Below, one piece after another: positions 4,176 through 62,692 of a stretch of 64,000 nucleotides of DNA (positions within the stretch are counted from its first letter, which is position 1; each line of letters begins with the position of its first letter). The position numbers and the translations under genes are program-made. A model generated the notes under the pieces. That model searched no databases and was not told the origin of the DNA. It saw only the letters and a program-made list of their open reading frames with translations. The DNA is taken from positions 12,524,001-12,588,000 of the forward strand of contig OX597825.1 in NCBI GenBank assembly GCA_951406725.2, read 5' to 3'. The DNA comes from Octopus vulgaris. Taxonomy: Eukaryota.

Positions 4176-4917
4176 ATGTCAGAATTATATCTATGAAACA
4201 AAAAGTACAAAACGGCCATTTATTGACAGATATAGTACAACCGCAGACAAAATGCTTTGCGCTGCCTAGATTTTTACATTTCAAAACTAAATATTATCTG
4301 GTTGGATTTTTTCTTTCACTCTTCCGGTATCGATAAAATATTTAGTGAAATACCAAGATCAATGATATCAGTTCACAATCTTCCACTTAAATTGTTGCTA
4401 TTCTAAACATAAATCAATATAAATATAACTAAACTTTTGATTTGATATCATAAAAACACTATAGATTCAGAGTTATGAGCTTACTAAACTAAATAGATTT
4501 TATAGTATTTATCAAATTTATGTATTTGAGTTTAATTTTCCCACGACAGGTTTGTTGTCCTAAATTCTCACATTAATAAATTATACAAATGAACCTAAAT
4601 TCTTCTAGTATATTTATCAATTTGTTATAAATTATTGTTAAACTCTACACAGAGTACAACCTATACGGCGCTTAAATTGCTATTCCAGGGTCGATGATAT
4701 ATTAAGCGAATGTAAGTGTGTATTTGATTGTCTTATATGTTTTTCAATAATTCTATTCATTGAAAACATTATTGGCTATATTGAACAGAAATTATCTATA
4801 TTATAGTGCCAATTGTTAAAGCTAGATAAAAGCCGGTGTTATGTGGCTATGAGAACTCTATTATTGCACAACTTCAAATCCTGCTGTCTTATATTTAATA
4901 TTAACATGTCTAATATT

Positions 4918-5333
4918 TATTTCTTTATTGCCTATGGAGGGTTCAAACATGGAGGGTTCAAACAAGGACAGACAAAGGGATTAAGTCGATTATAACGACC
5001 CAAGTGCGTAACTGGTACTTATTTAATCGACTCCGAAAGGATGAAAAGCAAAGTCGACCTCGGCGGAATTTGAACTCAGAACGTAGCGGCAGACGAAATA
5101 CCTATTTTTTACTACCCACAAGGGGCTACACACAGAGGGGACAAACAGAGACAGACATACGGCTTAAGTTGATTATATCAACACCAGTGCGTAACTGGTA
5201 CTTATTTAATCGACTCCGAAAGGATGAAAGGCAAAGTCGATTCGGCGGAATTTGAACTCAGAACGTAACGGCAGATGAAATACGGTTGCGCATTTCGCCC
5301 GGCGTGCTAACATTTCTGCCAGCTCGCCGCCTT
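4918..5333 (-). mobile_element. SINE family A, tandem dimer
   Basis: Reverse complement of the 9043 element: tRNA-like head GGCGGCGAGCTGGCAGAA at 5333, two body units. Confidence 0.9.
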
Positions 5334-6224: not shown

Positions 6225-6532
6225 TGTTGCTTGTTCCCTCTCGAGCCACGCCTGGCTCATAAGGGCCGGTTTCCCGGCTTCCTTGGCGTATAGGATTCCC
6301 CACCTGGACGGAACGCCGGTCCATCACAGGTGAGCTGAAAGATACAGGAGGAAAGAGTGAGAGAAAGTTGTGGCGAAAGAGTCAGCAGAAAGTTCGCCAT
6401 TACCTTCTGCCGGAGCCGCGTGGAGCTTAGATTTTTCTCTCATAAACACACACAGCGCCCGGTCTGAGATTCGAACCCGCGATCCTTCGACCGCGAGTCC
6501 GCTGCTCTAACCACTAGGCCATGCGCCTCTAC
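6225..6532 (-). mobile_element. SINE family C, tail type 3
   Basis: tRNA head TGGCCTAGTGG...GGTTCGAATC; TSD CATATCAAGTA/CATATTAAGTA (6212-6222, 6532-6542). Confidence 0.9.
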
Positions 6533-6631
6533 ATATTAAGTAGAGTTTCCATTTATAAAAAAGGGAAAAAACAAAAAAACATCCGTTTTGATACTGTTCA
6601 TACAATTTCAGTAGCTACATTCCGTGAGAGA

Positions 6632-6940
6632 GGAGGCACATGGCCTAGTGATTAGAGCAGCGGAATGGCGGCCGAGGGATCACGGGTTCGAATCTCAGAC
6701 CGGCCGATGTGTATGTTTATGAGCGAAACACCTAAGCTCCACTCGGCTCCGGCAGAAGGTAATGGCGAACTTCTGCCGACTCTTTCACCACAACTTTCTC
6801 TCACTCTTTCCTCCTGCATCTTGAAGCTCACCTTCGACGGACCGGTGTCCTATCCAGGTGGGGAACCTATACGCCAAGGAAACCGGGTAACCGGCCCTTA
6901 TGAGCTAGGCGTGGCTCGAGAAGGAACAAACAACAACAAA
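6632..6940 (+). mobile_element. SINE family C, tail type 3
   Basis: A box TGGCCTAGTGA, B box GGTTCGAATC, (CAA)n tail; TSD ACATTCCGTGA (6617-6627, 6940-6950). Confidence 0.9.
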
Positions 6941-9042
6941 CATTCCGTGATTATCTGTGATGCTCACTATGTTTCTCAAATATTTCGTGTCTTACCACAC
7001 GAAAGGCACGCAATATATCATGTATATTTCTTGACTTGATCATTCATTTTTACACTGTTTGCCTATCCAGTTCACAGTATTTTTAAAGCTATCCAGCATA
7101 TATTTCGCGCTTTTTACATAACGCCTGTTTATGTAGGAATCCTATTTTGTTATATTCCTGAGAAAATGGCGAAACGATCTGTTGTCTTTTGTTTAAGCAT
7201 CAGATTATGTACAACGAAACGGAGCCTGAATGTTGTCAGATGACGTACGAGAAATAACAGCCATATTAGCTTCAGTTTCAAACTTTAGAGTCCAACAAAA
7301 ACAAAGAACACAGACAATGTAATCTGAGATAACGCAGATGACATGTTTACAGCTAGAATCCATTCTAACTAAACATCTACTCAGTTTTTAAGATAAGACT
7401 GAACAAAAACACAACATATAATAGCGTTATCTTTTCCACCACAAAATTGCCTTTATCTTCTCTTTGAAGTAGTGACTAGCTTCTCTCTAATATTTATAAG
7501 GCACAGTCTTAGCTATGTGATAAACAAGATCAATTTATGAATAAGTCTTTTCAGGTTCAAACCCACTGCAAATCCAGCAAGTGTATTTAATTATGGCTTC
7601 GAAGATTTGTGGTTAGAGTATTCAGCTCATAGGTTCAGTTCATAAAAATGTTGGAGCAGTGTTCTGGGCACTTCATTTCATAGCTCTGTGGTCCAATCGT
7701 GTATTAAATATATAATTTCTAAGAGTAAATCTATTAGGAGAGTGGATAAGGAAGTTTTGAAGTGTAGAATGGCAAAATGAACGGCGGCCACCAAAAACAT
7801 AACGACCCCCACAGTGGCATATTATTGTTAGTTGTTTTTTTTCCCCATTATCATTATTGTCGTTGTTGATCGCTCTTTACAAAGCGGAGATACTGGATCA
7901 AAATGAATAGTTACTTTATCATTGATGAAGTGCACGCAAACCCTTATTTAAAACAGGAACATGAAGAAACAAAGAATCTCATTGGATTCGACAAAGAGTT
8001 TGAATGTTTGAATTTTTGAAGACCCCTAACTTTGATATTTACAAATCCATTCAACGTGACAATCTCCAGTAAAATACCAAATAAAGCTCAATCTCAAACA
8101 AGAAACAAAATAATCCATAGGAAGCTCACTTAAAGTACTCTAAACTACATATCTGACACCACACATGCTTATATGTTTTGGCTATACCATTCAACAATAA
8201 GTAATCACAACAATAACAACATCAACAGCAACAAAGTCGTTTGTATAAAAATATAATTACAAATCGTTTCTTGAGTGTTTGTAGTTTATGATTTGTTACG
8301 TTAATTTCTGTGAATCCTAAGAGATCTTTTATATTGCTTAATGAAAATAAATGCGCATTTCTGCAAATAATTGGCCTTATCTTAAACATTTCCCGTTCCG
8401 TTATGACGACTGAAGAGGTCTTAATTTTTTTGTTGTTGATTATTTTCGTTCATTATTTTTGTGCTTTTGTTTCATATAACATGAAATCAATGCCTCGCTA
8501 TTTCTCTCCCATCACTCAATTCAAAGTTGTTTGATTAGTTTCTTGTATTTACCCTTATCAATCACTTTGTTTCATTATTTTTTTCTTAATTACATTCATT
8601 CATTTATTTTTTGTAGTGTATATTCCTTTCAAATTACATTTTTCTTTTCTATTACACAACGCTATTAATTCATTATTTTCTAATTTGATAAGCATCTCAA
8701 GAGATTCCATTATTTTATGTCGGTTTTACCGAGCTATTGTAATGGAAAGAGGGGTATCTGTAATAGCATAAGTGGAGAATATTCTGCTATGCCTTGGTTG
8801 CCGTGATATAATTGGCGATGTAGATGATGTGAAGATAGATTCGATACAAGCAGTATTACAAATGATTAAGATACAAGCCGTTGTTTTATTGTTATTGCTT
8901 TGCAAGGTCATGCATGAGTGATTAGACCTGTAATCAAAGAGGTTCTAAGTCTTGATCATCCTTTATTATTTTAAGACGATATATTGTTGAAAGGAATGGT
9001 AAGTGTTATTTGTAGCAGGTTGAGCAAGTGAGGAGGGACAAA

Positions 9043-9630
9043 AGGCGGCGAGCTGGCAGAATCGTTAGCACGCCGGGCGAAATGCTTAGCGGTATTTCGT
9101 CTGCCGTTACGTTCTGAGTTCAAATTCCGCCGAGGTCGACTTTGCCTTACATCCTTTCGGGGCTCGATTAAATAAGTACCAGTTACGCACTTAATCCGTT
9201 TGTCTCTCCTTGTTTGTCCTCTCTGTGTGTAGCCCCTTGTGGGTAGTAAAGAAATAGGTATTTCGTCTGCCGTTACGTTCTGAGTTCAAATTCCGTCAAG
9301 GTCGACTTTGCCTTACATCCTTTCGGGGGTCGATTAAATAAGTACCAGTTACGCACTGGGGTCGATGTAATCGACTTAATACCTATGTCTGTCCTTGTTT
9401 GTCCCCCCTGTGTGTAGCCCCTTGTGGGTAGTAATGAAATAGAAATAGGTATTCCGTCTGCCGCTAAGTTTTGAGTTCAAATTCCGCCGAGGTCGACTTT
9501 GACTTTCATCTTTTCGGGGTCGATAAATTAAGTATCACTTACGCACTGGGGTCGATGTAATCGACTTAATCCGTTTGTCTGTCCTTGTTTGTCCCCACTA
9601 TGTTTAGCCCCTTGTGGGCAATAAAGAAAT
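9043..9630 (+). mobile_element. SINE family A, tandem trimer
   Basis: Full head plus three ~165-190 bp body units; TSD TGAGGAGGGACAAA/TGAGAAGGGACAAA (9029-9042, 9635-9648). Confidence 0.9.
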
Positions 9631-10414
9631 GATATGAGAAGGGACAAATAGGAACACAAATTGTATGGTCATATTTTTTGGCTGTTGCCTGGGCGATGAT
9701 GTTGACGTTGGCCATAGCGATGTTTTTCCTTGCAGAAGTGGTAATGAAATCTTAGCTCGCTAACAGAGATGATGGAAGAATTATCGTTGTGGCTGGTTTT
9801 CATCCTGCCTGAGCTAGATATGCTTTATATGTTGTTGTCTTTTATTGCTATTGATGCAGTTCTTGTCGATGTCACTGATAACGAAATAATGGCAGTAATA
9901 TTGCTGGTGTTAAATGACGTACAGGAGATGTTGGTGGTGGTAGGAGCGGCGATGCAGGCGGTGGGGGTTATGATGGTTTTCGTTATGGTTTGTCTGGAAA
10001 CGACATGGAAATAAATTGTAATCATTATCTAGCATCGGTGATTCTTGCGCACATAAATCGACGTGGTTCACCAATCGCCAAACGATCTACAGCTATTTGT
10101 AATTATAAAACGGAAATACAAGTGATTCGATCATATTGTAATTCTTTCCACAAACAGAAAATAAAATTTGGAAAAATAAAAAAAAATATTTCGTAACAGT
10201 AAAAGCGTCAAAGAGTTAAATAAAGTCTAAATTTACAGAGAAAAGACATCGATGGAAACGCAGGAATTTTTACAAAGAAGAAGCGAATATGTATTACAAT
10301 GATAAACAAGGCCATCAGTGTTGAAGTATGAACGATTGTAATACGTTGCAAGGCGATGTTATTTAGTTGATATCTGATTTAATATTTTATTATGTTTAGA
10401 AAAAATAATCGCTA

Positions 10415-11709: not shown

Positions 11710-11775
<66 letters not shown>

Positions 11776-11780
<5 letters not shown>

Positions 11781-12035
11781 CAAAATAAGCAACAAGGATA
11801 TCCAGAGGTAACGCATTACGATCGTTTCATGTGACTCCATTTAACTGAACAATGCAAACATTTGTAATAATTGCATTAAATGGATTCAATTAAATGGAGT
11901 CGCATGAAACGATTGTACTGCGTTACCTCTGGATATCCTGGTTGCTTGTTTTGATTATAATCACCTTATTTACATTGTATGGATAACACCATACTAAATT
12001 CTGGTGCCTCAACTTAAGTACCATATTCAGCTGAA
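11776..12035. mobile_element. Foldback (inverted-arm) repeat, Penelope pLTR-like
   Basis: Arms 11776-11849 and 11886-11958 are near reverse complements; the extension matches 3190-3262. Confidence 0.6.
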
Positions 12036-16877: not shown

Positions 16878-17527
16878 AATCGAACTTAATTAAATTAAAT
16901 TAAATCCGTTTACGATTGGCTTGTTTCATCAGCAAAGTCACCAAAAGAAAAGGAGAACATATACGCACGAGGCGACACCACTGAAGCCCCGAGTGTATAT
17001 ATCCTAATTTTTCGAAATCCAACATAACCGCGCCAACTACTCAGCAGCAAATATAAACTGCTGATACAATTTCAGAATTATTCAAAAATTATTAATTTAT
17101 CAATATAGGGTAGCAAAAAAATCCAAGAAAATTCAAGAAAAATTTTCTGCAACCAGTGGTCAAGTGAGAAAATAGAAATAGTCACAGACAATATAATATA
17201 TTCAAAAGTATTAAGGAATGACCCTTACAGGTCGTTCAACTCACTTGAAAAGAGCAGCCAAAACTCAAACCGCAAAAATAGTAGTAATTCTGAAAGCTAA
17301 AGGAGTTATTATTTCTCCTTTAGCTTTCAGAATTACTACTATTTTTGCGGTTTGAGTTTTGGCTGCTCTTTTCAAGTGAGTTGAACGACCTGTAAGGGTC
17401 ATTCCTTAATACTTTTGAATATATTATATTGTCTGTGACTATTTCTATTTTCTCACTTGACCGCTGGTTGCAGAAAATGTTTCTTGAATTTTTCTTGGAT
17501 TTTTTTTGCTACCCTATATTGATAAAT
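16878..17527 (-). mobile_element. Penelope pLTR/retrozyme-like element (family H1) with a ~211-bp inverted arm
   Basis: Near-perfect palindrome 17095-17305/17315-17527; the minus strand continues to ACTTTG-CTGATGA (16938-16926) and a long stem II. Confidence 0.75.
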
Positions 17528-20812: not shown

Positions 20813-20889
<77 letters not shown>

Positions 20890-20909
20890 TAATAATAATA
20901 ATAATAATA
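20813..20909. repeat. (TAA)n microsatellite
   Basis: Trinucleotide tract. Confidence 0.95.
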
Positions 20910-20968
20910 ACTGCAACAACATCGAAAAATACCTTAGGTATATGAACCTGGGTTCGAAATTTCTCCAA

Positions 20969-21014
20969 GACACTTGATGATTGCTGGGGGATGTATCAAC
21001 CGAAACGTTGTGTT
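20969..21014 (+). ncRNA. Minimal hammerhead motif, family H3, partly decayed
   Basis: GACAC-TTGATGA-...-GAAA-CG-TT-GTGTT; stem I intact, C3 and stem II mutated relative to the 56193 copy. Confidence 0.55.
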
Positions 21015-21364
21015 AACAAATATCCATCAAATGTAAATAATATAAATCATGGAACTATTGTTCACACGTTCTGTGTATGATGCATGTAGAGCGAAGAAAA
21101 GTTTAAAGCATTTTGGAAGGACATTTTAATAACGAATACGAAGAGAAGAATATATCGAATGATCAGGTGATAGTAAAGTGATCGATGGACAAGTTTACTT
21201 CTACCATCTCGTCATTAAGTCGACACCTCTGAACGTCATGGGTTGCAGTTTCAGTTTATGTATGTTGACAAACGAATAAAATTTCACTCGTAAGGATTTG
21301 AATTCGAAGCGCACAGAGCAAAAGCAAGGTTACTTTGCCCTTATGTTTCCAGTCCTCTGCTAAT

Positions 21365-21783
21365 ACCTATTTCTATACTACCCACAAGGGGATAAACACG
21401 GAGAGGACAAACAAGGACAGACAAACGGATTAAGTCGATTATATCAACCCCAGTGCGTAACTCGTACTTATTTAATCGATCCCGAAAGGATGAAAGGCAA
21501 AGTCGACCTCGGCGGAATTTAAACTCAGAACGTAGCAGCAGATGAAATACCTATTTCTTTACTACCCACAAGGAGCTACATATTGAAGGGACAAACTAGG
21601 ACAGACAACGGATTAAGTCGATTATATAGACCCCAGTGCGTAACTGGTACTTATTTAATCGACCCCGAAAAGATGAAAGGCAAAGTCGACCTCGGCGGAA
21701 TTTGAACTCAGAACGTAGCGGCAGACGAAATACCGCAAAGCATTTCGCCCTGCGTGCTAACGTTTCTGCCAGCTCGCCGCCTT
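21365..21783 (-). mobile_element. SINE family A, tandem dimer
   Basis: Two body units plus head, same junction as the 9043 copy. Confidence 0.9.
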
Positions 21784-22722
21784 AATAACCTGTGCCTTAA
21801 TGCTTCTCTGCTAAAACCCTGTGCAGGAAAGACATTTGCGCATCCCTTACATGAGACTGAAATAACGTTACTGAGAAGTATTCAATGACGGAAATATTCA
21901 AGTTTTTCATTTTTACGTGAACGTGTTCTTTAGCTCTCATCAAAGCAATCGATAGTTGAATACCCTTTTATCGTTTTGGAATGAAAACTCAGAAGAAGAT
22001 CTTATACATTAGATTGCAGTTGTGTTGGTTGAGCCGGAAAAATTTCGCTGGCTTCTTAGATGTTACGATTGGATAGATTTTCAAAATCTCTGCAAGATCC
22101 ATAAATGTCTCCAAAATCTCAGCTCCTTACACGTACTTTACAAAGACATAGATTATCTACTCATCATTACGCAATGAATGGCAATGGATAGCAAATTCCT
22201 TCACTCATAGAAGCCACATTGAATATATGAACGTTACTAAATGCTGACATTCTCGATGTATCAGGTTACACAATGAACGATTATATACATTTTGACGTTC
22301 TGAAATGTTGCAGAAACGTTGCAGAAGTGCTCCTCAGTATAGCAACAGTATTATGAAAATCTCTTAGAAATGCTTCGTATGATGTGAATCCTTTTCAAAA
22401 TATTTATAGCTATTGTAAATATATTGATAATTAAGCTTATGTACGTATACCATCTCGGGATTGACTTCAAGCACGTTATAGGGGAGAATTGAGTAGAAGC
22501 TGAGAGAACACCGACCACAAGTATTTTAAAGATGGTAAATATGGATAGAAATTATGGTTATTTGTTAGTAATAACTTTCAAGTACTGATCCCTGGGATTA
22601 ACAAATCTAAAAGAAGGAAGAAAGGATAGGCTTTCATTCAAATATGTTGTATGACCACAAGCTCTTCATAGATAACATCAAACCATTTAGGAATAAGAAG
22701 AAAGCGATACAATATTCTCCAG

Positions 22723-22954
22723 ACTCTTTTACTCTTTTACTCTTTTACTTGTTTCAGTCATGTTACTGTGGCCATGCTGGAGCACCACCTTAAGTCGAGC
22801 GAATCGATCCTAGGACTTATTCTTTGTAAGCCTAGTACTTATTCCATCGGTCCCTTTTACCGAGCCGCTAAGCTACGGGGACGTAGACACACCAGCATCG
22901 GTTCTCAAGCGATGTTGGGAGGACAAACACAGATACACAAGCATCTACACACAC

Positions 22955-23004
<50 letters not shown>

Positions 23005-23163
23005 GACGGGCTTCTTTCAGTTTCCGTCTACCAAATCCACTCACAAGACGTTGGTCGGCCCGAGGCTATAGTAGAAGACACTATTCCCAAGGTGCCACGC
23101 AGTGGGACTGAACCCGGAACCATGTGGTTCGTAAGCAAGCTACTTACCACACAGCCACTCCTA
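22723..23163 (-). mobile_element. SINE family B, full length with internal (TA)n
   Basis: tRNA head GGAGTGGCTGTGTGG...GGTTCAGTCCC, ACCTTGGG core, (GTAAAAGA)n tail. Confidence 0.9.
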
Positions 23164-23496: not shown

Positions 23497-23911
23497 ACTC
23501 TCTCTCTTTTACTCTTTTACTTGTTTCAGTCATTTGACTGCGGCCATGCTGGAGCACCGCCTTTTAGTCGAGCAAATCGACCCCGGGACTTATTATTTGT
23601 AAGCCCAGTACTTATTCTATCGGTCTCTTTTGCCGAACCGCTAAGTGACGGGGACGTAAACACACCAGCATCGGTTATCAAGCAATGCTAGGGGGACAAA
23701 CACACACACACACACACACACACATACATATATATATATACATATATACGACAGGCTTCTTTCAGTTTCCGTCTACCAAATCCACTCACAAGGCATTGGT
23801 CGGCCCGGGGCTAAAGCAGAAGACACTTGCCCAAGGTGCCATGCAGTGGGACTGAACCCGGAACCATGTGGTTGGTTAGCAAGCTACTTACCACACAGCC
23901 ACTCCTGCGCC
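23497..23911 (-). mobile_element. SINE family B, full length
   Basis: Reverse complement of 61011-61445. Confidence 0.9.
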
Positions 23912-29275: not shown

Positions 29276-29803
29276 TTATATTTATATATATATATGCATA
29301 TATGTGTGTGCTTAAAATTGTATTCGTGTAATTTCAGTAATCTTAAAATGGTGGAATGAAATTATAAATTATTTTTATTTGACAGGTTTTACTCATTTTA
29401 AAAGCATCCTCCATTAAACTAGTGAGTTTTTAGCGTTATTTCTCTCTGTACAAGATATTTTCGTTACCCAGTCATTACGTGGCAAGATTAGATCTTTATT
29501 TCACTATCCGTATATCTCTGGTCTGGTATAAATAATTTAGATCAATATTTTTAATGTAATCTTCGAATATAAATTTTGACGACGCTTATTCATGAGTTTT
29601 ACAAGATATTGACAGGTTTTCTATATTTCGGTGAATTATGATCTTCCATTTTAAATATATTTTAGGTTTTATTTTAGCGTAATTACATAAAAAGCAATAA
29701 TTTAATTCAGCGACTTTGCTTTAATTAAGCTAATTCGTTTATCATGAGATCATGTATGTCTTACGTTTTGCGCTCAAATATAAGCTCCAAATGATATTTA
29801 GTT

Positions 29804-30279
29804 AATAATAGTTATCGCCATACTAATATGGCATTCTTATAAAAATAAGAAAAAAGCTGTCCGCTTATTAGCTCCATGTGGCCATCGCCTTAAGTTAGCT
29901 ATTTGATACACAAACTGTATCCATATAACCTTCGAACAAGGGAGGTCAGTCGCTCCACACTACTTGACCGGCAGGTACAGACGCGTTTCGGGGTATTGCC
30001 CCTTTTCAATGCAGCGTAGCCAGCCAGTAGGTGTCGCTTCCGACAATCTCTGTTCGATGGTTTTATTTACCTAGTTTCGGTGGAATACATTCACTTGTTT
30101 TCAATAATAGAAATATTAAAATAACTAAGTCTCTCTAAAAGAGAACAGCGGCAGCGTTCCCGGAAAATAATAGTTATCTATTTTTATAAGAATGCCATAT
30201 TAGTATGGCGATAACTATTATTTTCCGGGAACGCTGCCGCTGTTCTCTTTTAGAGAGACTTAGTTATTTTAATATTTCT
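29804..30279 (-). mobile_element. Penelope pLTR/retrozyme-like element (family H4): 362-nt monomer plus inverted arm
   Basis: AATAATAGTTATC recurs at 29804 and 30166; 30179-30279 is the reverse complement of 30109-30165 joined to 29804-29847. Confidence 0.75.
29976..30013 (-). ncRNA. Minimal type I hammerhead, U3-A8 core variant
   Basis: UGCA-UUGAAAA-GGGG-CAAUA-CCCC-GAAA-CGCG-UC-UGUA; palindromic stem III ACGCGU, GUC triplet. Confidence 0.75.
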
Positions 30280-33200
30280 GATATTTCATTTGTATCAATT
30301 CCTTGGTGTTTGCCCTTCGTTTGATTCCCTAAAGGGTCTTATAAGTAAATGTGGTACGCAAATATCTAAGTGTTTGATTCATTACATACTGAGAAAAGAA
30401 AACGTTAGAAATACTGTATTTATTTATGTATTAGCTGCTCTAATTTATACTTGAACTTAAATGAAAATTACTCGATGCCACTTATACACGGCGCATAGGT
30501 AAAACTATCAAGGGAAAAACATTGGAAATGAGTTTTAACACTAAGTTTAACAAAGTCTATATGAAGACGAAGAACAATTTCAATACAGCTTTAACGAAAT
30601 AAAGTAACAACAGACGTATTCTTTTTAAATTTTGATGAAGAAAGCTCCGCAATAAATATTCATTTGTTATTGTCACTTTTCATCAACATCTTTGATTCTG
30701 TCTCATTGCTGTTGAAGCCCAGTTTGGGGAATTACGTCGCCGTAATTATTTCATTCATTTCTTGACAGAGGAAACAGTTGTGATTCTCATTATATTTGCA
30801 AAATCTCAAACAGAGAAGATTGGCTTTTTCTGAATTTGTTCAGCATGTCTGTGTGTACGGAAATATGAAAGCAAAATATGAAAGGAATCTTTCAATTCTT
30901 AGCAATAATTCTAACTTATACGGAAGCACAAAGATTTGGAGAGATGAGGATTAGTCAATGCCATTGAGCTCATTATCTACTGGTACATATTTTATCAACT
31001 CTCAAAGTGGATCTTGTTGGAAATTGAACTCAGTTCATGAAGAGCCGTGTGAAATATGCAAGGTAGATTGTCTACCCCTGGCAGTATTAAGTTGCTAGCT
31101 CCATAAGTGTAATAACAACAACAACAGCAGTAGAAGCAACTAACGAAGACGAGGAGGTGTAGGAGGTGAAAGCAGGAGTGGAGATTGATAAGGAGACGAT
31201 GAAGAGGAAGATGAAGAGGAAAAATACTCTTCGGGCCAAATGACAAAGGCATGAATACAAACAATGTTTAAATCAAGTTAAGATCTTTGCGATTAAGATT
31301 CTCCTGTAAGAACTGTAATAATTTTGTATGTGTAAAAGAAAAATTAGTTGATCTAACAATATTATAGAAATAGAAATCGATTTCTCCCGAATGAAAATTT
31401 ATGCGGTAAAAAAAATCAAAGATTCGTTGGACAAGACGCACTATGTCAAAATAAAAGACAGCATGAACATGGTTGGAACCCATTTGAGAACAGGTCTAGA
31501 CTCGATCTGGAGTTAAAGAAAAACAATAACAGTTTGTTGGCTATGCAGATAGATGTTTATGACGAAAATAGCGTGATCACATCAGACGGAACATGTAAAG
31601 CAAGTCAAACTCGAGTCAACTTGAAATAAAAACGTATGTTATACAACACATCAAACCTGAACAGCAAAATATATAAGACATATGCTGAAGTCTGGCTTTT
31701 ATTAGACACTCTATTGAGCTGATTACTGTACGAAGCACATTTAATGCGATCACTAGAAGCGGTGTTCTCTGAAAATGTTAATTACCAACAAAAAAGGACT
31801 AGTTCTTATAGAAATAAAATGGCGATTTCAAATGAACGATGTACGAAAGAACAAGAGGAACAAGCGTTTCAAGCATACTTTACAGCAATATTATTTCTAA
31901 CACACACTAGCGTCATAAACTTAACAAACGAGATCAAAAGGAGAATAAATGGAGTTGTAAGACGAAAACTAGACAGAAATGCATTAGTAAATATACGCTG
32001 GTTCGTTGTTAAAGTAGAAATAAAAAAATATGTAGGAATCGCGAATACAACAGCTCATATAATGAAGAGTATGTTACAAAAGAATTGAACACTCGCGAAA
32101 AAAGTATATTCCCTCACAAACCAAAGCAAAGTTGCGCAAAAAGACGTGAAAATGTATGAATCCTGTGTCCCTCATAACAATGAAAAATAACGCAAGAGAA
32201 CAGACTACACAGGGAAGTGACAAGTTATTGTCACACATGTATATGAACCGGCGGGAAATGAACAAGAAATCACAAAGCGAGTGATGGTCAAACAAGGATC
32301 TATAAATTTAATAAAAATATATCGCAGCGAAATAATTAGTGATCAATAAGGAAAAGCTAAGAGAAACTAAAGAATCGTTGGAGAACTGTTCGAATTAAAA
32401 TCAATGAACTTGTACGTATAGAAACCATTCCGCAAAAGAATAATAAACGTATAGGAAATAACAGCTAAAGTAGACTTTGTTATCAAAGAAATATATCCGA
32501 GGAAAACGCACTTGAACATTAAAAGGGTAGATGAATAAGTATATACATTAGCTATAACAACTTTGAGAGAAACTCCGTTCTATAGCGTATCACATTTCAT
32601 ACGTCATGGAAAACAGAACAAAATAGCACGAAAGATTTATAACTGACCAGCGAAAAATGTTTGAGACTATTATGCAGCCGATATCAAGTAGCGCAATTAA
32701 GATAGAATTTATTCATATACTAGTGGAGGTCAAGACTTTTAGAGAATGTTAATGAAAAATAAACGTGTCTTGTAAATGATTATGGCCCGCCTATATTAAA
32801 ATCGATTATTTGAAAGTAAATCTAAGCATGTATAAAGCAGATAAAAAGAATCAAACAAACAATGTATTTAAAACAGAGGACACAATCTAGCTATACTGTG
32901 AGAGGTTATGGATCTAATATATATTTATATAAGAGAGCTACACGCTCTGTGAAAACATGAGTAGAATATTAATTAACGTAATTAATAACTAAATGGCAAT
33001 TAGCATTACAACGTAAATGTGGAGAAATTGGCAGTGTTTTCAACTGTCTCTAGTTTCAGGCTTAAGTAAGCTATTAATAAACAAAATGCTTTTCGCACGG
33101 TTTTTAATGAACTGTTACCGAAAGTAGGTACAGTTTACCTGTACAGAAAACGCAATATTAATTACCTGCACACACGTAAAAGCCCATGCGGGAAAAGTGC

Positions 33201-33646: not shown

Positions 33647-33740
<94 letters not shown>
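33520..33740. repeat. Compound (TATC)n(TC)n(TACA)n(TA)n tract
   Basis: Adjacent simple repeats. Confidence 0.95.
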
Positions 33741-34115
33741 GTAAGTAGCTTGCTAACCAACCACATGGTTCCGGGTTCAGTCCCACTGCGTGGCATCTTG
33801 GGCAAGTGTCTTCTGCTATAGTCCCGGGCCGACCAATGCCTTGTGATTGGATTTGGTAGACGGAAACTGAAAGAAGCCTGTCGTATATATGTATATATAT
33901 ATATGTATGTGTGTGCTTGTGTGTCTGTGTTTGTCCCCCTGGCATTGCTTGACGGCCGATGCTGGTGTGTTTACGTCCCCGTCACTTAGCAGTTCAGCAA
34001 AAGAGACCGATAGAATAAGTACTGGGCTTACAAAGAATAAGTCCCGGGGTCGATTTGCTCGACTAAAGGCGGTGCTCCAGCATGGCCGCAGTCAAATGAC
34101 TGAAACAAGTAAAAA
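33735..34115 (+). mobile_element. SINE family B
   Basis: Near-identical to 61011-61445. Confidence 0.9.
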
Positions 34116-42745: not shown

Positions 42746-42799
42746 AAATATAGAAGTAAAGATAATTATATGAAAATAAGCAGTAAAGTTGATTAGAGC

Positions 42800-43347
42800 G
42801 TCCCAGTAGGTATCTGGTACTTAATTTATCGACGCCGAAAGGATGAAAGTCAAAGTCGACCTCGGCGGAGTTGGAACTCAGAACCTAGCGGTGAACGAAA
42901 TAGCTATTTCTTTACTACCCACAAGGGGCTAAAAACGTCTTCCGCTACGTTCTGAGGTCGACTTTGTCTTTCATCCTTTTGGGGTCGATTAAATAAGTAC
43001 CAGTTACGCACTGGGGTCGATATAATCGACTTAATCCGTTTGTACGTCCTTGTTTGTTCTCTCTGTGTTTAGCTCCTTGTGGGTTGGAAAGAAATAGGTA
43101 TTTCGTCTGTCTTGTATTTTGAGTTTAAATTCCGCCGAGGTCGACTTTGTCTTTCATCCTTTCGGGGTCGATTAAATAAGTACCAGTTACGCACTGGGGT
43201 CGATATAATCGACTTAATCCGTTTGTCTCTCCTTGTTTGTCATCTCTGTGTTTAGCCCCTTGTGGGTAGGAAAGAAATAGGTATTTCGTCTGTCTTTACA
43301 TTCTGAGTTGAAATTCCGCCGAGGTCGACTTCGTTTTTCATCCTTTT
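42800..43347. mobile_element. SINE family A multimer with inverted left segment
   Basis: 42800-42935 is in minus orientation and abuts plus-oriented tandem units 42936-43347. Confidence 0.85.
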
Positions 43348-54003: not shown

Positions 54004-54101
54004 ACCGAATAATAGTCACATATTACATTTACAGATAAATTCCACTATTTACATAATATCAAGGTCTCTTTCATTCTTTTATTGTCTTACCATTTTTATC
54101 A

Positions 54102-54150
<49 letters not shown>

Positions 54151-54211
54151 TAATAAAGGCCCGAAACATATGTACCGCTGAATCCTTGGCATCATGTTTT
54201 TATTTTGATCA

Positions 54212-54261
<50 letters not shown>

Positions 54262-54302
54262 TAATAAAAATGACCACACCACAAATGTTCACATAAGCAC
54301 AT

Positions 54303-54772: not shown

Positions 54773-54952
54773 TGTGAGGTATACTTGCCATCTCAATATG
54801 GCTGACCACTAAGTGTGGGTGTTACTGTAGCTTGTAGCCCCAGGAGAACATCGTCTCCAACTGGCTTTAGACGATGTTCTCCTGGGGCTATAAGCCACAG
54901 TAATACCCACCCTTGTTGGTCAGCCATATTGAGATGGCAAGTATACCTCACA
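54773..54952. repeat. 180-bp hairpin (84-bp arms, 12-nt loop)
   Basis: TGTGAGGTATACTTGCCATCTCAATATGGCTGACC...TCGTCT and its reverse complement, with few mismatches. Confidence 0.9.
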
Positions 54953-55004
54953 TTGTCGTGCAGTTACTGTTTATACCTCGTTCAGAGATTTATAATATAA
55001 ATAT

Positions 55005-55425
55005 TATTATTTCTAAATCTCTCTAAAGGAGACTACGGCAGCAGTACTAGGTATTAATAGTTACTGCCAAGCTAACATGGCAGTCCAGAAAAATAACACG
55101 AAAGCTGCCGTTGATTAGCTCCAAGAGGCCATCGCGCTTCGCGTCTAGCTAGCTATGTGACACACAATCATCGAAAAGGGGAGGTCAGCAGCTTCCCCAT
55201 GTTGGGTCAGACACCCGCAAACTAGTTTCAGGGTATTTACCCTTTATCAATATGGAGTAGTCGAACCCAGCAGGCGTTGCTGTTGATTGGTTTTTCGAAG
55301 GTTGTAATGGACACCGGTTTGCGTGCCACATAGCTAGCTAGAGGTGATTGCCACTTGAAGCTAATCAACGGCAGCATTCGTCCTACTTTTCTGGACTGCC
55401 ATATTAGCTTGGCGATAACTATTAA
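55005..55425 (-). mobile_element. Diverged family H4 element with inverted arm
   Basis: Colinear similarity to 30109-30178 then 29804-30030; 55320-55425 inverts 55054-55165. Confidence 0.7.
55215..55255 (-). ncRNA. Minimal type I hammerhead, U3-A8 core variant
   Basis: CCAUA-UUGAUAA-AGGGUA-AA-UACCCU-GAAA-CUAG-UU-UGCGG. Confidence 0.65.
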
Positions 55426-55493
55426 CACACGCACACACATACACACACACAAAACACACAAACACATATAAACACACACACACACACACACAT

Positions 55494-56192: not shown

Positions 56193-56238
56193 AACGCAAC
56201 GTTTCGGCTGATATAACGTCCAGCCTTCATCAGGTGCC
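56193..56238 (-). ncRNA. Minimal type I hammerhead, canonical core (family H3)
   Basis: GGCAC-CUGAUGA-A-GGCUG-GACGUUAUAU-CAGCC-GAAA-CG-UU-GCGUU within repeat 56085-56357. Confidence 0.7.

Positions 56239-56455: not shown

Positions 56456-56490
<35 letters not shown>
56356..56490. repeat. (TAA)n microsatellite
   Basis: Trinucleotide tract. Confidence 0.95.
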
Positions 56491-56494
56491 TATA

Positions 56495-56770
56495 TGAGAA
56501 TGATCCCTGGCTTACCATCCCTGCAAGAAGTGCAAAAGATTGTCTTAACTGGTACATCACACGTATTGCGAAGAGCATTGTCGATGTGAGAACTGTTGCT
56601 GCTCATGTATTTTAATTTAACTTTAAAAAAATAAAAAATAAATGAACGAACTATTGAGTTTGGTTTAATGGCCTAACATTGTATACTAAGAGTTTCTTTG
56701 CCCTAGGAGTCGGGAAGACGCTCGGCAAGAAATGGAAGCACATTTGAAAGAAGAAGAAAAAAAAATAATA
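56495..56770 (+). mobile_element. 3' end of an R4/Dong-like LINE inserted in (TAA)n
   Basis: MIPGLPSLQEVQKIVLTGTSHVLRRALSM* (QK..LLGT..ILR..L terminal motif), then 3'UTR and A/TAA tail. Confidence 0.75.
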
Positions 56771-56774
56771 ACAG

Positions 56775-56935
56775 CAACAACAACAACAACAACATCGGAA
56801 AAATACCTTAGGAATGAGAACCCAGGTTCGAAATTCCCCCAAGACAATTGATGATGGCTGGAAAGTACATCAGTCTATACGTTGTTAACAACAAACAAGA
56901 TGGGGACAAGCATCCGTCAAATGTAGCTAATGTAC
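56775..56935 (+). mobile_element. Decayed family H3 repeat, inverted relative to 56085-56300
   Basis: AACATCGGAAAAATACCTTAGGAATGAGAACCCAGGTTCGAAATT...TTGATGATGGCTGG. Confidence 0.75.
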
Positions 56936-60314: not shown

Positions 60315-60712
60315 CTTTTCTACTTTAGGCACAAGGCCTGAAATTTTTGGGAAGAGAACCAGTCGATTAGATCGACCTCAGTACGCGACCGGTACTAAAT
60401 TTATCGACCCCAAAAGGATGAAAGGAAAGTCGACCTCGGCGGAATTTGATCTCCAGGAAGGTAAAGACAGACGAAATGCCTATTTCTTTACCACCCACAG
60501 GTGCTAAACATAGAAGGGACAAACACGGACAGACGAAGTGATTAAGTCGATTATATCGACCCCAGTGCGTAACTGGTACTTATTTAATCGACCCTGAAAG
60601 GATGAAAGGCAAAGTCGACCTCGGCGGAATTTGAACTCAGAACGTAGCGGCAGACGAAATACGGCTACGCATTTCGTCCGGCGTGCTAACGTTTTTGCCT
60701 GCTCGCCGCCTT
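60315..60712 (-). mobile_element. SINE family A dimer with alternative terminal tail
   Basis: 19-bp TSD ATAATGCTTGTAAATATAT (60296-60314, 60713-60731). Confidence 0.9.
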
Positions 60713-61010
60713 ATAATGCTTGTAAATATATATCAAGCACACGCTCTGGTGGTGTTTCTCAAAAATTACGATAATCCAAAATTATAAGATAGTGGCTACA
60801 TAAAACGGCTTATTGACATTTATAAATTTAAGGAGGGAAAAATACTTGACGTTATAAATTACGTTATATCATCCGTTCTAATTGCGACGTAGCGGGAATT
60901 TAGAAGTTATTTTTTATCGTTTACCTTCAGATATTTCAGCCCTGATACATAGCACAAGATTCGTTTCAAGGTTACTGAGATACTAAGTTCTTACATTAAA
61001 TTTTCTAACG

Positions 61011-61176
61011 GGCGCAGGAGTGGCTGTGTGGTAAATAGCTTGCTAACCAACCACATGGTTCCGGGTTCAGTCCTACTGCGTGGCATCTTGGGCAAGTGTC
61101 TTCTGCTATAGCCCCGGGCCGACCAATGCCTTGTGAGTGGATTTGGTAGACGGAAACTGAAAAGAAGCCCGGCGTA

Positions 61177-61220
<44 letters not shown>

Positions 61221-61445
61221 TGTGTGTGTTTGTGTGTCTGTGTTTGTCCCCCTAGCATTGCTTGACAACCGATGCTGGTGTGTTTACGTCCCCGTCACTT
61301 AGCGGTTCGGTAAAAGAGACCGATAGAATAAGTACTGGGCTTACAGAAGAATAAGTCCTCGGGTCGATTTGCTCGACTAAAGGGGCGGTGCTCCAGCATG
61401 GCCGCAGTCAAATGACTGAAACAAGTAAAAGAGTGAAAAGAGAGA
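61011..61445 (+). mobile_element. SINE family B, full length
   Basis: GGCGCAGGAGTGGCTGTGTGG head, internal (TA)n(TG)n, AAGTAAAAGAG tail. Confidence 0.9.
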
Positions 61446-62692
61446 GGTCTTAACCATCGTAGGTGGGGAAAATTTTAATCGTGCATCTCGATAAAATACT
61501 TCTTTTCTGAGTAACTTCAATGCTCCCATTTCATTCCCACTTAATGGCAAATACCTGTAAAAACATTTAACTCGTCGTCACCCTTGAAGTTCTCGTCACT
61601 CCAAAACATGCACCGATTGCACTGAGAACAACCTATTCCCAGCACCTGCATGTATTCAAGTATACACCAATTCAATATTATTCTATATCTTTCAAATACT
61701 AATTGAACATAAATAATACAAGTTTTCATCGTATTAGGAGACCATTGAAAATGCATCCTGCAAAAATTTTTAAAAGGAATATGCTCCTTCAGTTGTACAG
61801 AAAATACATATTTTCTTATATTATTTCAAAGTTCTAAATATGTTCGGGTATATAAATGCTTCGAGGCATCAAGACAAATTTTTGCAAATCTGATGTTACA
61901 ACTACTACTTGTAAATCTCTATCTCGGTGATAAATAAAACGGAAAAGGATGTTGATATTCAGAAAGGAAATATATTTAACATACAAGCAGTCTCCTTTGC
62001 ATTGCATCGTGTAAATAAATGTTTTATGCGTGTCCAAAAACTATAAAAATATTCAAAAATGGTTAATGCATATATATAAATTTGCAATTCAATGCAATCA
62101 TATATTTTCATTCTAAGAACATTTTAAAATTATTTACATAGTCTACATTCGTAAGAGAAGTTCAGTATTAGATGTATATATTACGATTTTTTATGACTTT
62201 TCAATGATAATTTTACCCAATGATATGGCTTCTTTTCAATATGTGTCTTTAAACTCCACTCACTGATATCTGTAACCCAGTATTACGTTCAAGAACCAGG
62301 TACGGGAAAGTACAAGTTTAATTTGCGAAAAAACAACTTGTAATAACAATTTAAGTCGTGTTGACAACTCTTCTACCATGGATTATATACACAAACGTAC
62401 ATGTTTTCGAATTTCACACTCACTCACCCTATTTGTTTGCTTGTCTGGAACTCTCTCACTCACTCACTCACTCACTCTCTCTCTTTATATATATGTATAT
62501 ATATATATTCTTGTATGTTTTTTTGTTTCAGTCATTTGACCGCGGCCATGCTGGGACACCAACGTAAGGTAAAAACATGTATGCACTCATAAATGTCGAC
62601 TGTGGCCAAGCTGGAGCACCGCCTTTTAGTCGAGCAAATCGACCCCAGAACATATTCTTTGTAAGCCTAGTAATTTTTCTATCGGTGTCTTT

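Follow-up and report, generated by a model that had tools for sequence, protein, structure and literature searches.

Animal non-LTR retrozymes are repeats of 150–450 bp with a GC content below 50% and target duplications longer than 4 bp; those of mussels, about 350–390 bp long, are expressed as circles, and Penelope elements have been proposed as their movers (Cervera and de la Pena 2020, PMC7229834). The canonical type I hammerhead has a helix I of 6 bp, a helix II of 4 bp and a short palindromic helix III (PMC4209133), and ribozymes with such a helix III are described as working poorly as monomers and needing a dimer (PMC4209133, PMC7229834). Minimal hammerheads have a helix II of 7–8 bp, an extra base before helix II and little or no helix III; these motifs cleave poorly, and circular templates have been proposed (PMC4209133). 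A core with U3-A8 has been described in Penelope-like (Cercyon-related) repeats of Schistosoma, with about 1,300 matches (PMC4209133), and the C3G/G8C combination partly restores activity (PMC11167929).

Penelope-like elements are recognised by an inverted 5' copy and a tail of 30–40 bp (Craig 2021, PMC8557442). The tail corresponds to the span between two internal start sites of reverse transcription, the endonuclease prefers ATT and, for the Anolis element, cleavage is unnecessary for insertion in vitro (Frangieh 2024, PMC11167929). A recent preprint treats retrozymes as non-autonomous derivatives of the terminal repeats (pLTRs) of Penelope elements, calls loci with at least two units "active", and reports cleavage for one of nine predicted dimers (Li, Clavereau and Pollet 2026, bioRxiv 10.64898/2026.07.22.740005).

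Here we analyse a 64,000-nucleotide stretch of Octopus vulgaris DNA (assembly GCA_951406725.2, contig OX597825.1, positions 12,524,001 to 12,588,000), which we call the window and within which all coordinates are given. The repeat starting at 29804 is, with good confidence, a young dispersed non-autonomous Penelope-like mini-element of the animal non-LTR retrozyme type, made from an RNA that was either longer than one unit or circular.

Results

A single 362-nt unit with a head-to-tail junction

The window is rich in AT, microsatellites and interspersed repeats and reads as animal non-coding DNA. The unit at 29804–30165 is 362 nt long, has a GC content of 41% and is non-coding, its longest stop-free frame being 55 aa when read round; its limits follow from the sequence and from contigs of the sequencing runs X9 and X16, and its RNA sense is the minus strand. 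It is followed on the same strand, at 30166–30178, by 13 nucleotides identical to 29804–29816, which represent the end of a preceding unit in a direct head-to-tail junction. Over all periods from 340 to 379, this is the sole run of at least eight identical bases, bearing out the proposal of an earlier, sequence-only reading that the unit restarts after 362 nt. The absence of any array from the TRF output for 29300–31000, combined with the 13-nt restart, means that the locus holds about 1.04 units and is not a tandem array.

In size and composition the unit has all that is expected of a retrozyme, being a non-coding sequence within 150–450 bp that has less than 50% GC and a single type I hammerhead. 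With about 1.04 units and one ribozyme it falls outside the "active" class, which has a minimum of two successive units whose ribozymes are complete, and is a monomer derivative of a retrozyme. The complete unit is predicted to be highly paired (z = −5.9, with none of 100 shuffles equally stable).

The sequence-only reading had raised the question of whether copies are linked to an open reading frame. For the unit and for both copies in the window the answer is negative: there is no frame for a reverse transcriptase/GIY-YIG partner in the unit or near either copy, frames of at least 50 aa around the two copies having been judged by eye only. None of 66 of the 68 window frames of at least 100 aa contains a Pfam family above cut-off, the two omitted from the search being microsatellite frames. 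The 29804–30165 locus is not an autonomous element.

A canonical hammerhead frame with a U3-A8 core

Motif scans and folding place a predicted type I hammerhead on the minus strand at 29974–30018. In the RNA sense, a UAC bulge (30018–30016) is followed by the first strand of helix I (30015–30010, paired with 29979–29974), the core UUGAAAA (30009–30003), helix II, consisting of 4 bp (GGGG/CCCC) closed by a loop of 5 nt (30002–29990), and the palindromic 6-nt helix III, ACGCGU (29986–29981), which is preceded by GAAA. C17 of the GUC site is at 29980, in agreement with the cut predicted earlier between 29980 and 29979, and the core, stems and GUC site that had been described from the letters were all located. 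Both window copies conform to the type I core pattern C3/U3-UGA-N-G8/A8-A ... GAA-A ... UH, the 3-8 pair being U3-A8 in each. Hammerheads with U3-A8 cores probably keep activity, and the UAC bulge and A-rich loop 2 presumably match the tertiary contact of the Schistosoma ribozymes. The earlier statement that the U3-A8 change is known to be tolerated stands as far as natural occurrence goes, given the approximately 1,300 Schistosoma matches (PMC4209133).

All four pairs of helix II form with a probability of 0.96–0.97. The 75-nt ribozyme stretch by itself is not clearly more stable than shuffled sequence (z = −1.49; 10/200 shuffles). The geometry is not that of the minimal Penelope type, with a helix II of 4–5 bp, no extra base before it and a palindromic helix III of 6 nt. 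A strict hammerhead scan of the 64 kb returns this motif as its only match. A degenerate pattern, built from the motif and its relative described below, is circular for these two source sites, the only ones it finds in the window, and shows by its 0 hits in 100 shuffles that chance yields none. Rfam gives no family at its gathering score in the window and no hammerhead match up to an E-value of 10; matches of hairpin or miRNA type over the inverted arm were set aside as artefacts of the long hairpin formed there.

The degenerate pattern has no match in viral contigs, and none was found in the phage collection. The lone metagenome match (E = 0.054 with the two-sequence model) was dismissed as chance; it lies inside a bacterial frame of 468 aa and is devoid of helix III and the cut site. 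A helix closing across the junction is strong in the relative (z = −2.99) but of near-zero probability in the local fold of the 29804 copy, although the fold of the whole unit contains it, and we do not propose it. Scans for sigma-70 promoters are irrelevant to an animal genome.

A diverged relative in the same window

A second, diverged copy is found at 54992–55426, matching the first at 209 of 288 aligned columns (73%). Its direct arm (about 55291–55425) is 5'-truncated and shares the main end of the 29804 copy, which here falls in a (CA)n tract; its U3-A8 hammerhead (55250–55220, minus strand) is located within the inverted arm, together with the junction and the tail. The core, the UAC bulge, the A-rich loop 2 and both ends are kept, as is helix II with a two-sided change, and helix III is a different palindrome. 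Upstream of its core, the relative retains no more than about 45 nt. The inverted arm ends 55–57 nt past the junction, at about the same point as in the 29804 copy.

Retention of U3-A8 and of the helices in the relative upholds the description of the hammerhead as covariant. Between the two copies, both partners have changed in 3 of 13 pairs, and 92% of cells are paired, versus 32–58% when the alignment is slid; with two sequences the covariation fails to beat shuffles (170/500). The two-sequence model detects no third copy in the 64-kb window. A 180-bp palindrome (54773–54952, 89%), which lies some 40 bp away from the relative's tail end, is unrelated in sequence to the 362-nt unit.

Inverted arm, tail and likely target duplication

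On the plus strand, the unit and its restart are followed by an inverted arm of 101 nt (30179–30279). Its reverse complement reads 30109–30165 and then 29804–29847, identical at 101 of 101 positions; this match to the end and the start of the unit means that the arm spans the junction, as had been claimed, with 44 nt of unit end and a tail of 57 nt. Together with 30109–30178 the arm forms a perfect 70-bp hairpin, into which the corresponding 70 bp of a read-through transcript would be expected to fold.

The main 3' end is at 29804, 176 nt downstream of the predicted cut. A second fixed 3' end is located around 30104–30109, some 233–238 nt after the predicted cut; the tail, on the minus strand at 30109–30165, is the stretch of 57 nt that follows the main 3' end round the junction. 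It is there that the arm stops, and the corresponding end of the relative is at roughly this point. The two ends are thus 57–62 nt apart, longer than the published 30–40. The sequencing runs give 80 rows of loose contig ends; among the 19 listed, at least four are placed at 30104, 30105 or 30107, or at 30283, the mirror site, and there is one at 29809, the cut site having none. A hairpin immediately preceding the main 3' end (29817–29832, minus strand), with pair probabilities mostly of at least 0.9 in both window copies, is kept in the relative and may act as a start signal for reverse transcription.

The same AT-rich 8-mer, containing ATT, is present on the plus strand at 29792–29799 and 30279–30286 and is likely a target-site duplication of 7–8 bp; a comparably placed match occurs in 27 of 8,858 random 476-bp spans of the window. 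A duplication of this length exceeds the 4 bp used to recognise retrozymes. Four extra bases (29800–29803) between the left duplication and the unit are outside the junction sequence of the arm and might result from a priming slip. Both window copies have the Penelope-like signature of a partial tandem plus an inverted, 5'-truncated copy.

A large and young family in public sequencing runs

At least half of 37 sampled words are present in 20 of 24 listed runs, which belong to 11 studies and 8 organism codes; none of the 24 is on record as RNA. Four of them (X1, X9, X16 and X20) were mapped. In X9, a small run of 4.3 million letters in which 2 of 7,509 records were mapped, a 392-nt contig covers 29883–30165 and continues with 29804–29912, giving a closed 362-nt loop with an overlap of 30 nt. 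It is identical to the window copy at 359 of 362 positions, differing at 29879, 29975 and 30091. The loop supports the earlier view that the size is that of a retrozyme or a solo pLTR; a closed contig can also arise from overlapping dispersed copies or from tandem DNA.

X1 is a genome-size run, of which 830 records were used. At six variant sites the depth is 5,684–14,405 times that of a flank contig; being summed contig depth and not a true copy number, this is read as thousands of copies. The stretch from the tail to the ribozyme is as deep as the rest of the unit, the X9 loop is closed and unbranched, and the right flank is reached by an X1 contig of 3,307 nt that extends from 30250, near the arm end. 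The left flank has zero cover in all four runs, to which no weight is given, and no empty site was encountered. The junction is contained in an X16 contig at a depth of 177, and the same junction was mapped on the inverted arm in X20. That these two runs are RNA is a guess, and both also contain copies with flanks, so neither shows expression or circles. At 30144, several contigs of X1, X16 and X20 part from the unit and continue with a variant tail and junction resembling those of the relative at 55 kb, indicating more than one abundant subfamily. The 362-nt repeat family is large and young.

A probably weakened ribozyme in the 29804–30165 copy

At 29975 (minus strand) the window copy has a rare substitution that produces a C-C mismatch at the fifth pair of helix I, where most family copies are paired. 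Its letter accounts for 41.6 of a depth of 213,877 in X1, the other letter for 213,835; the contigs of X9, X16 and X20 all have the other letter and none has that of the window copy. Helix I of the window copy has five of six pairs, with probabilities of 0–0.22, compared to six of six pairs and 0.94–1.0 with the majority letter. Since there is one ribozyme, double cleavage is unable to release a monomer from the locus. The sequence-only reading had singled out this copy as the best candidate for a functional self-cleaving, possibly circularising RNA; the single ribozyme, the dimer-type helix III and the mismatch at 29975 speak against this. The mismatch, like the target duplication and the family context, had gone unnoticed in that reading. 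Most likely, this copy represents a dead end, a monomer whose ribozyme is weakened, and the locus is probably inert.

Other repeats in the window

A minimal Penelope-type hammerhead with a CUGAUGA core, an extra base before a long helix II and a 2-nt loop on helix III is present at 56198–56233 (minus strand), in a second, unrelated repeat. Copies related to this repeat are found near 20881–21019 and 56758–56934; two of them, the 20.9-kb copy and an inverted partner some 600 bp distant, seem degenerate. Between the arms of this repeat, a short frame at 56490–56589 (plus strand) resembles the C-terminus of a LINE protein.

A near-perfect palindrome of 433 bp (97%) occupies 17095–17527, with a partial copy at 195–440, and scans found no hammerhead in it. 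More inverted-repeat structures are at 6225–6935, 11775–11959, 42786–43346 and 54091–54272, some of them being opposed copies of interspersed repeats. An abundant interspersed family (4910–5333, 9042–9645, 21360–21784, 42954–43346 and 60361–60713) is built of internal tandem units of about 185 nt, 82–90% alike, and has GAAAGGAUGAAA-like motifs; scans detected no hammerhead there either. A SINE-like family with a central microsatellite, 82–95% alike between copies (22732–23162, 23500–23911, 33735–34114 and 61011–61446), is presumably an octopus SINE.

Discussion

Relation to described elements

The unit resembles the animal non-LTR retrozymes of Cervera and de la Pena (PMC7229834) in size, low GC content, lack of an open reading frame, the one type I hammerhead with a palindromic helix III, the highly paired fold, a duplication longer than 4 bp and a high copy number. 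It differs from them in its U3-A8 core and in being a single unit instead of an array, and the parts of that paper used here report no counterpart of the tail and inverted arm. With hammerhead-bearing Penelope pLTRs it shares the partial tandem, the inverted 5' copy, the tail downstream of the ribozyme, the AT-rich target with ATT and, in Schistosoma, the U3-A8 core (PMC4209133, PMC8557442, PMC11167929); unlike these, it has no reverse transcriptase/GIY-YIG frame, a tail of 57–62 instead of 30–40, and a canonical ribozyme geometry. The non-autonomous Chlamys elements, such as MRC1, are likewise non-coding, Penelope-dependent and inserted head-to-tail with pLTRs, but are found in green algae and mostly have no canonical hammerheads (PMC8557442).

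The "monomer" class of Li and co-workers, dispersed solo units with proposed Penelope-like movement, is similar to our copy; their case is built on co-occurrence and a pLTR phylogeny, mainly in vertebrates, ours on insertion signatures (bioRxiv 10.64898/2026.07.22.740005). The choice between retrozyme and pLTR posed by the sequence-only reading names a class that fits, although by the account of this preprint the two are largely one category. At the family level, the most likely identity is that of an animal non-LTR retrozyme, in other words of a Penelope-like element lacking autonomy.

Literature searches for a hammerhead with U3-A8 returned PMC4209133 only. A search with the 21-nt ribozyme motif returned no papers, and among the matches listed for octopus hammerhead ribozymes there is nothing on the 362-nt family. 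The available portions of the text and supplement of an Octopus vulgaris repeat paper do not mention ribozymes (PMC13282606). As these searches cover the literature, one of the repeat catalogues, Repbase or Dfam, may already contain the family.

Alternative explanations

The copy might be a solo pLTR, a truncated terminal repeat belonging to an ordinary Penelope-like element that is autonomous; partial tandems would then account for the 362-nt loop. Its tail, its inverted arm and the ATT in its target are traits of Penelope-like elements, the first U3-A8 report concerned Penelope-like repeats of Schistosoma and most motifs of that sort are found singly (PMC4209133), and the relative, with its roughly 45 nt upstream of the core, gives no unit length. 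Nevertheless, the tail of the window copy reaches the ribozyme after 99 nt without an open reading frame, the closure in X9 is unbranched, and the depth from tail to ribozyme in X1 is full. Helix I, of 6 bp with the majority letter, and the 4-bp helix II without an extra base are canonical and not of the minimal Penelope type, and the 66 window frames searched are free of Pfam families above cut-off; we regard a solo pLTR as improbable. More improbable still is a satellite-like tandem repeat spread at the DNA level, its ribozyme a relic with no present RNA step. A tandem array would also give a closed contig, no listed run is on record as RNA, and local amplification by unequal crossover has been proposed, with eight of nine dimers inactive (bioRxiv 10.64898/2026.07.22.740005), yet both window copies are dispersed and 5'-truncated, with inverted arms and shared 3' ends, and the 29804 copy adds the likely target duplication and the arm matching at 101 of 101 positions. 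Dispersal, truncation, inverted arms, shared ends and duplication are marks of reverse transcription.

Reverse transcription could also have been provided by a LINE, for example of the RTE or R4/Dong type, acting on a SINE-like element, with the inverted arm coming from twin priming. Truncation at the 5' end with inversion and a duplication of 7–8 bp are LINE traits as well, and a likely LINE remnant is present near 56490–56589. Twin priming, however, accounts neither for an arm that repeats 70 nt of the direct arm nor for one that ends downstream of the main 3' end; in addition, the 29804 copy has no poly(A) or simple-repeat tail and the window no tRNA gene, making this origin very unlikely.

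Proposed mechanism

For the preferred Penelope-like retrozyme, the arms constrain the template. The direct arm of 375 nt runs without interruption through the cut site and the junction, which points to an uncleaved multimer or a circle. A cleaved linear monomer is excluded, since no more than 176 nt could be copied from it when starting at the main end. The continuous arm, like the exact inverted arm across the junction, agrees with the earlier proposal that the template contained this junction. A circle and a multimer fit the window copy equally.

Head-to-tail source loci would be transcribed, and intact hammerheads of the family would cut in a dimer fold, after which monomers may be ligated into circles. 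A Penelope-like reverse transcriptase/GIY-YIG protein would nick AT-rich DNA, and cDNA synthesis could start at either of two internal sites, 176 or about 233–238 nt after the cut site. At the 29804 locus, one cDNA begun at the main end would account for a full unit and 13 further nucleotides, 375 nt in all, and another, begun at the tail end, for the 101 nt joined in inverted orientation.

Implications

U3-A8 cores, retrozymes and the link between retrozymes and Penelope elements are already published. The new points are modest: Penelope insertion marks on a unit of retrozyme size, a tail exceeding the published length, and a canonical frame that holds U3-A8. Standard scans may miss cores of this kind inside a canonical hammerhead frame, as may the descriptors of Li and co-workers. 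To the retrozyme-Penelope link the family adds evidence at the level of the insertions: tail, inverted arm, ATT-containing duplication, and cDNA longer than the unit. With a family so young and abundant, the choice between a circle and an uncleaved multimer as template becomes testable from one genome assembly.

A more specific and tentative possibility, which we would not favour at present, is that this young family, with thousands of copies in several related animal species, descends from a 362-nt hammerhead circle, the circular RNA itself being reverse-transcribed by a Penelope-like enzyme from two fixed starts. If the circle were the template, each dispersed copy would be a record of rolling-circle copying, and the ends of the family would directly test the claim that animal retrozyme circles serve as templates, with Penelope enzymes as their movers.
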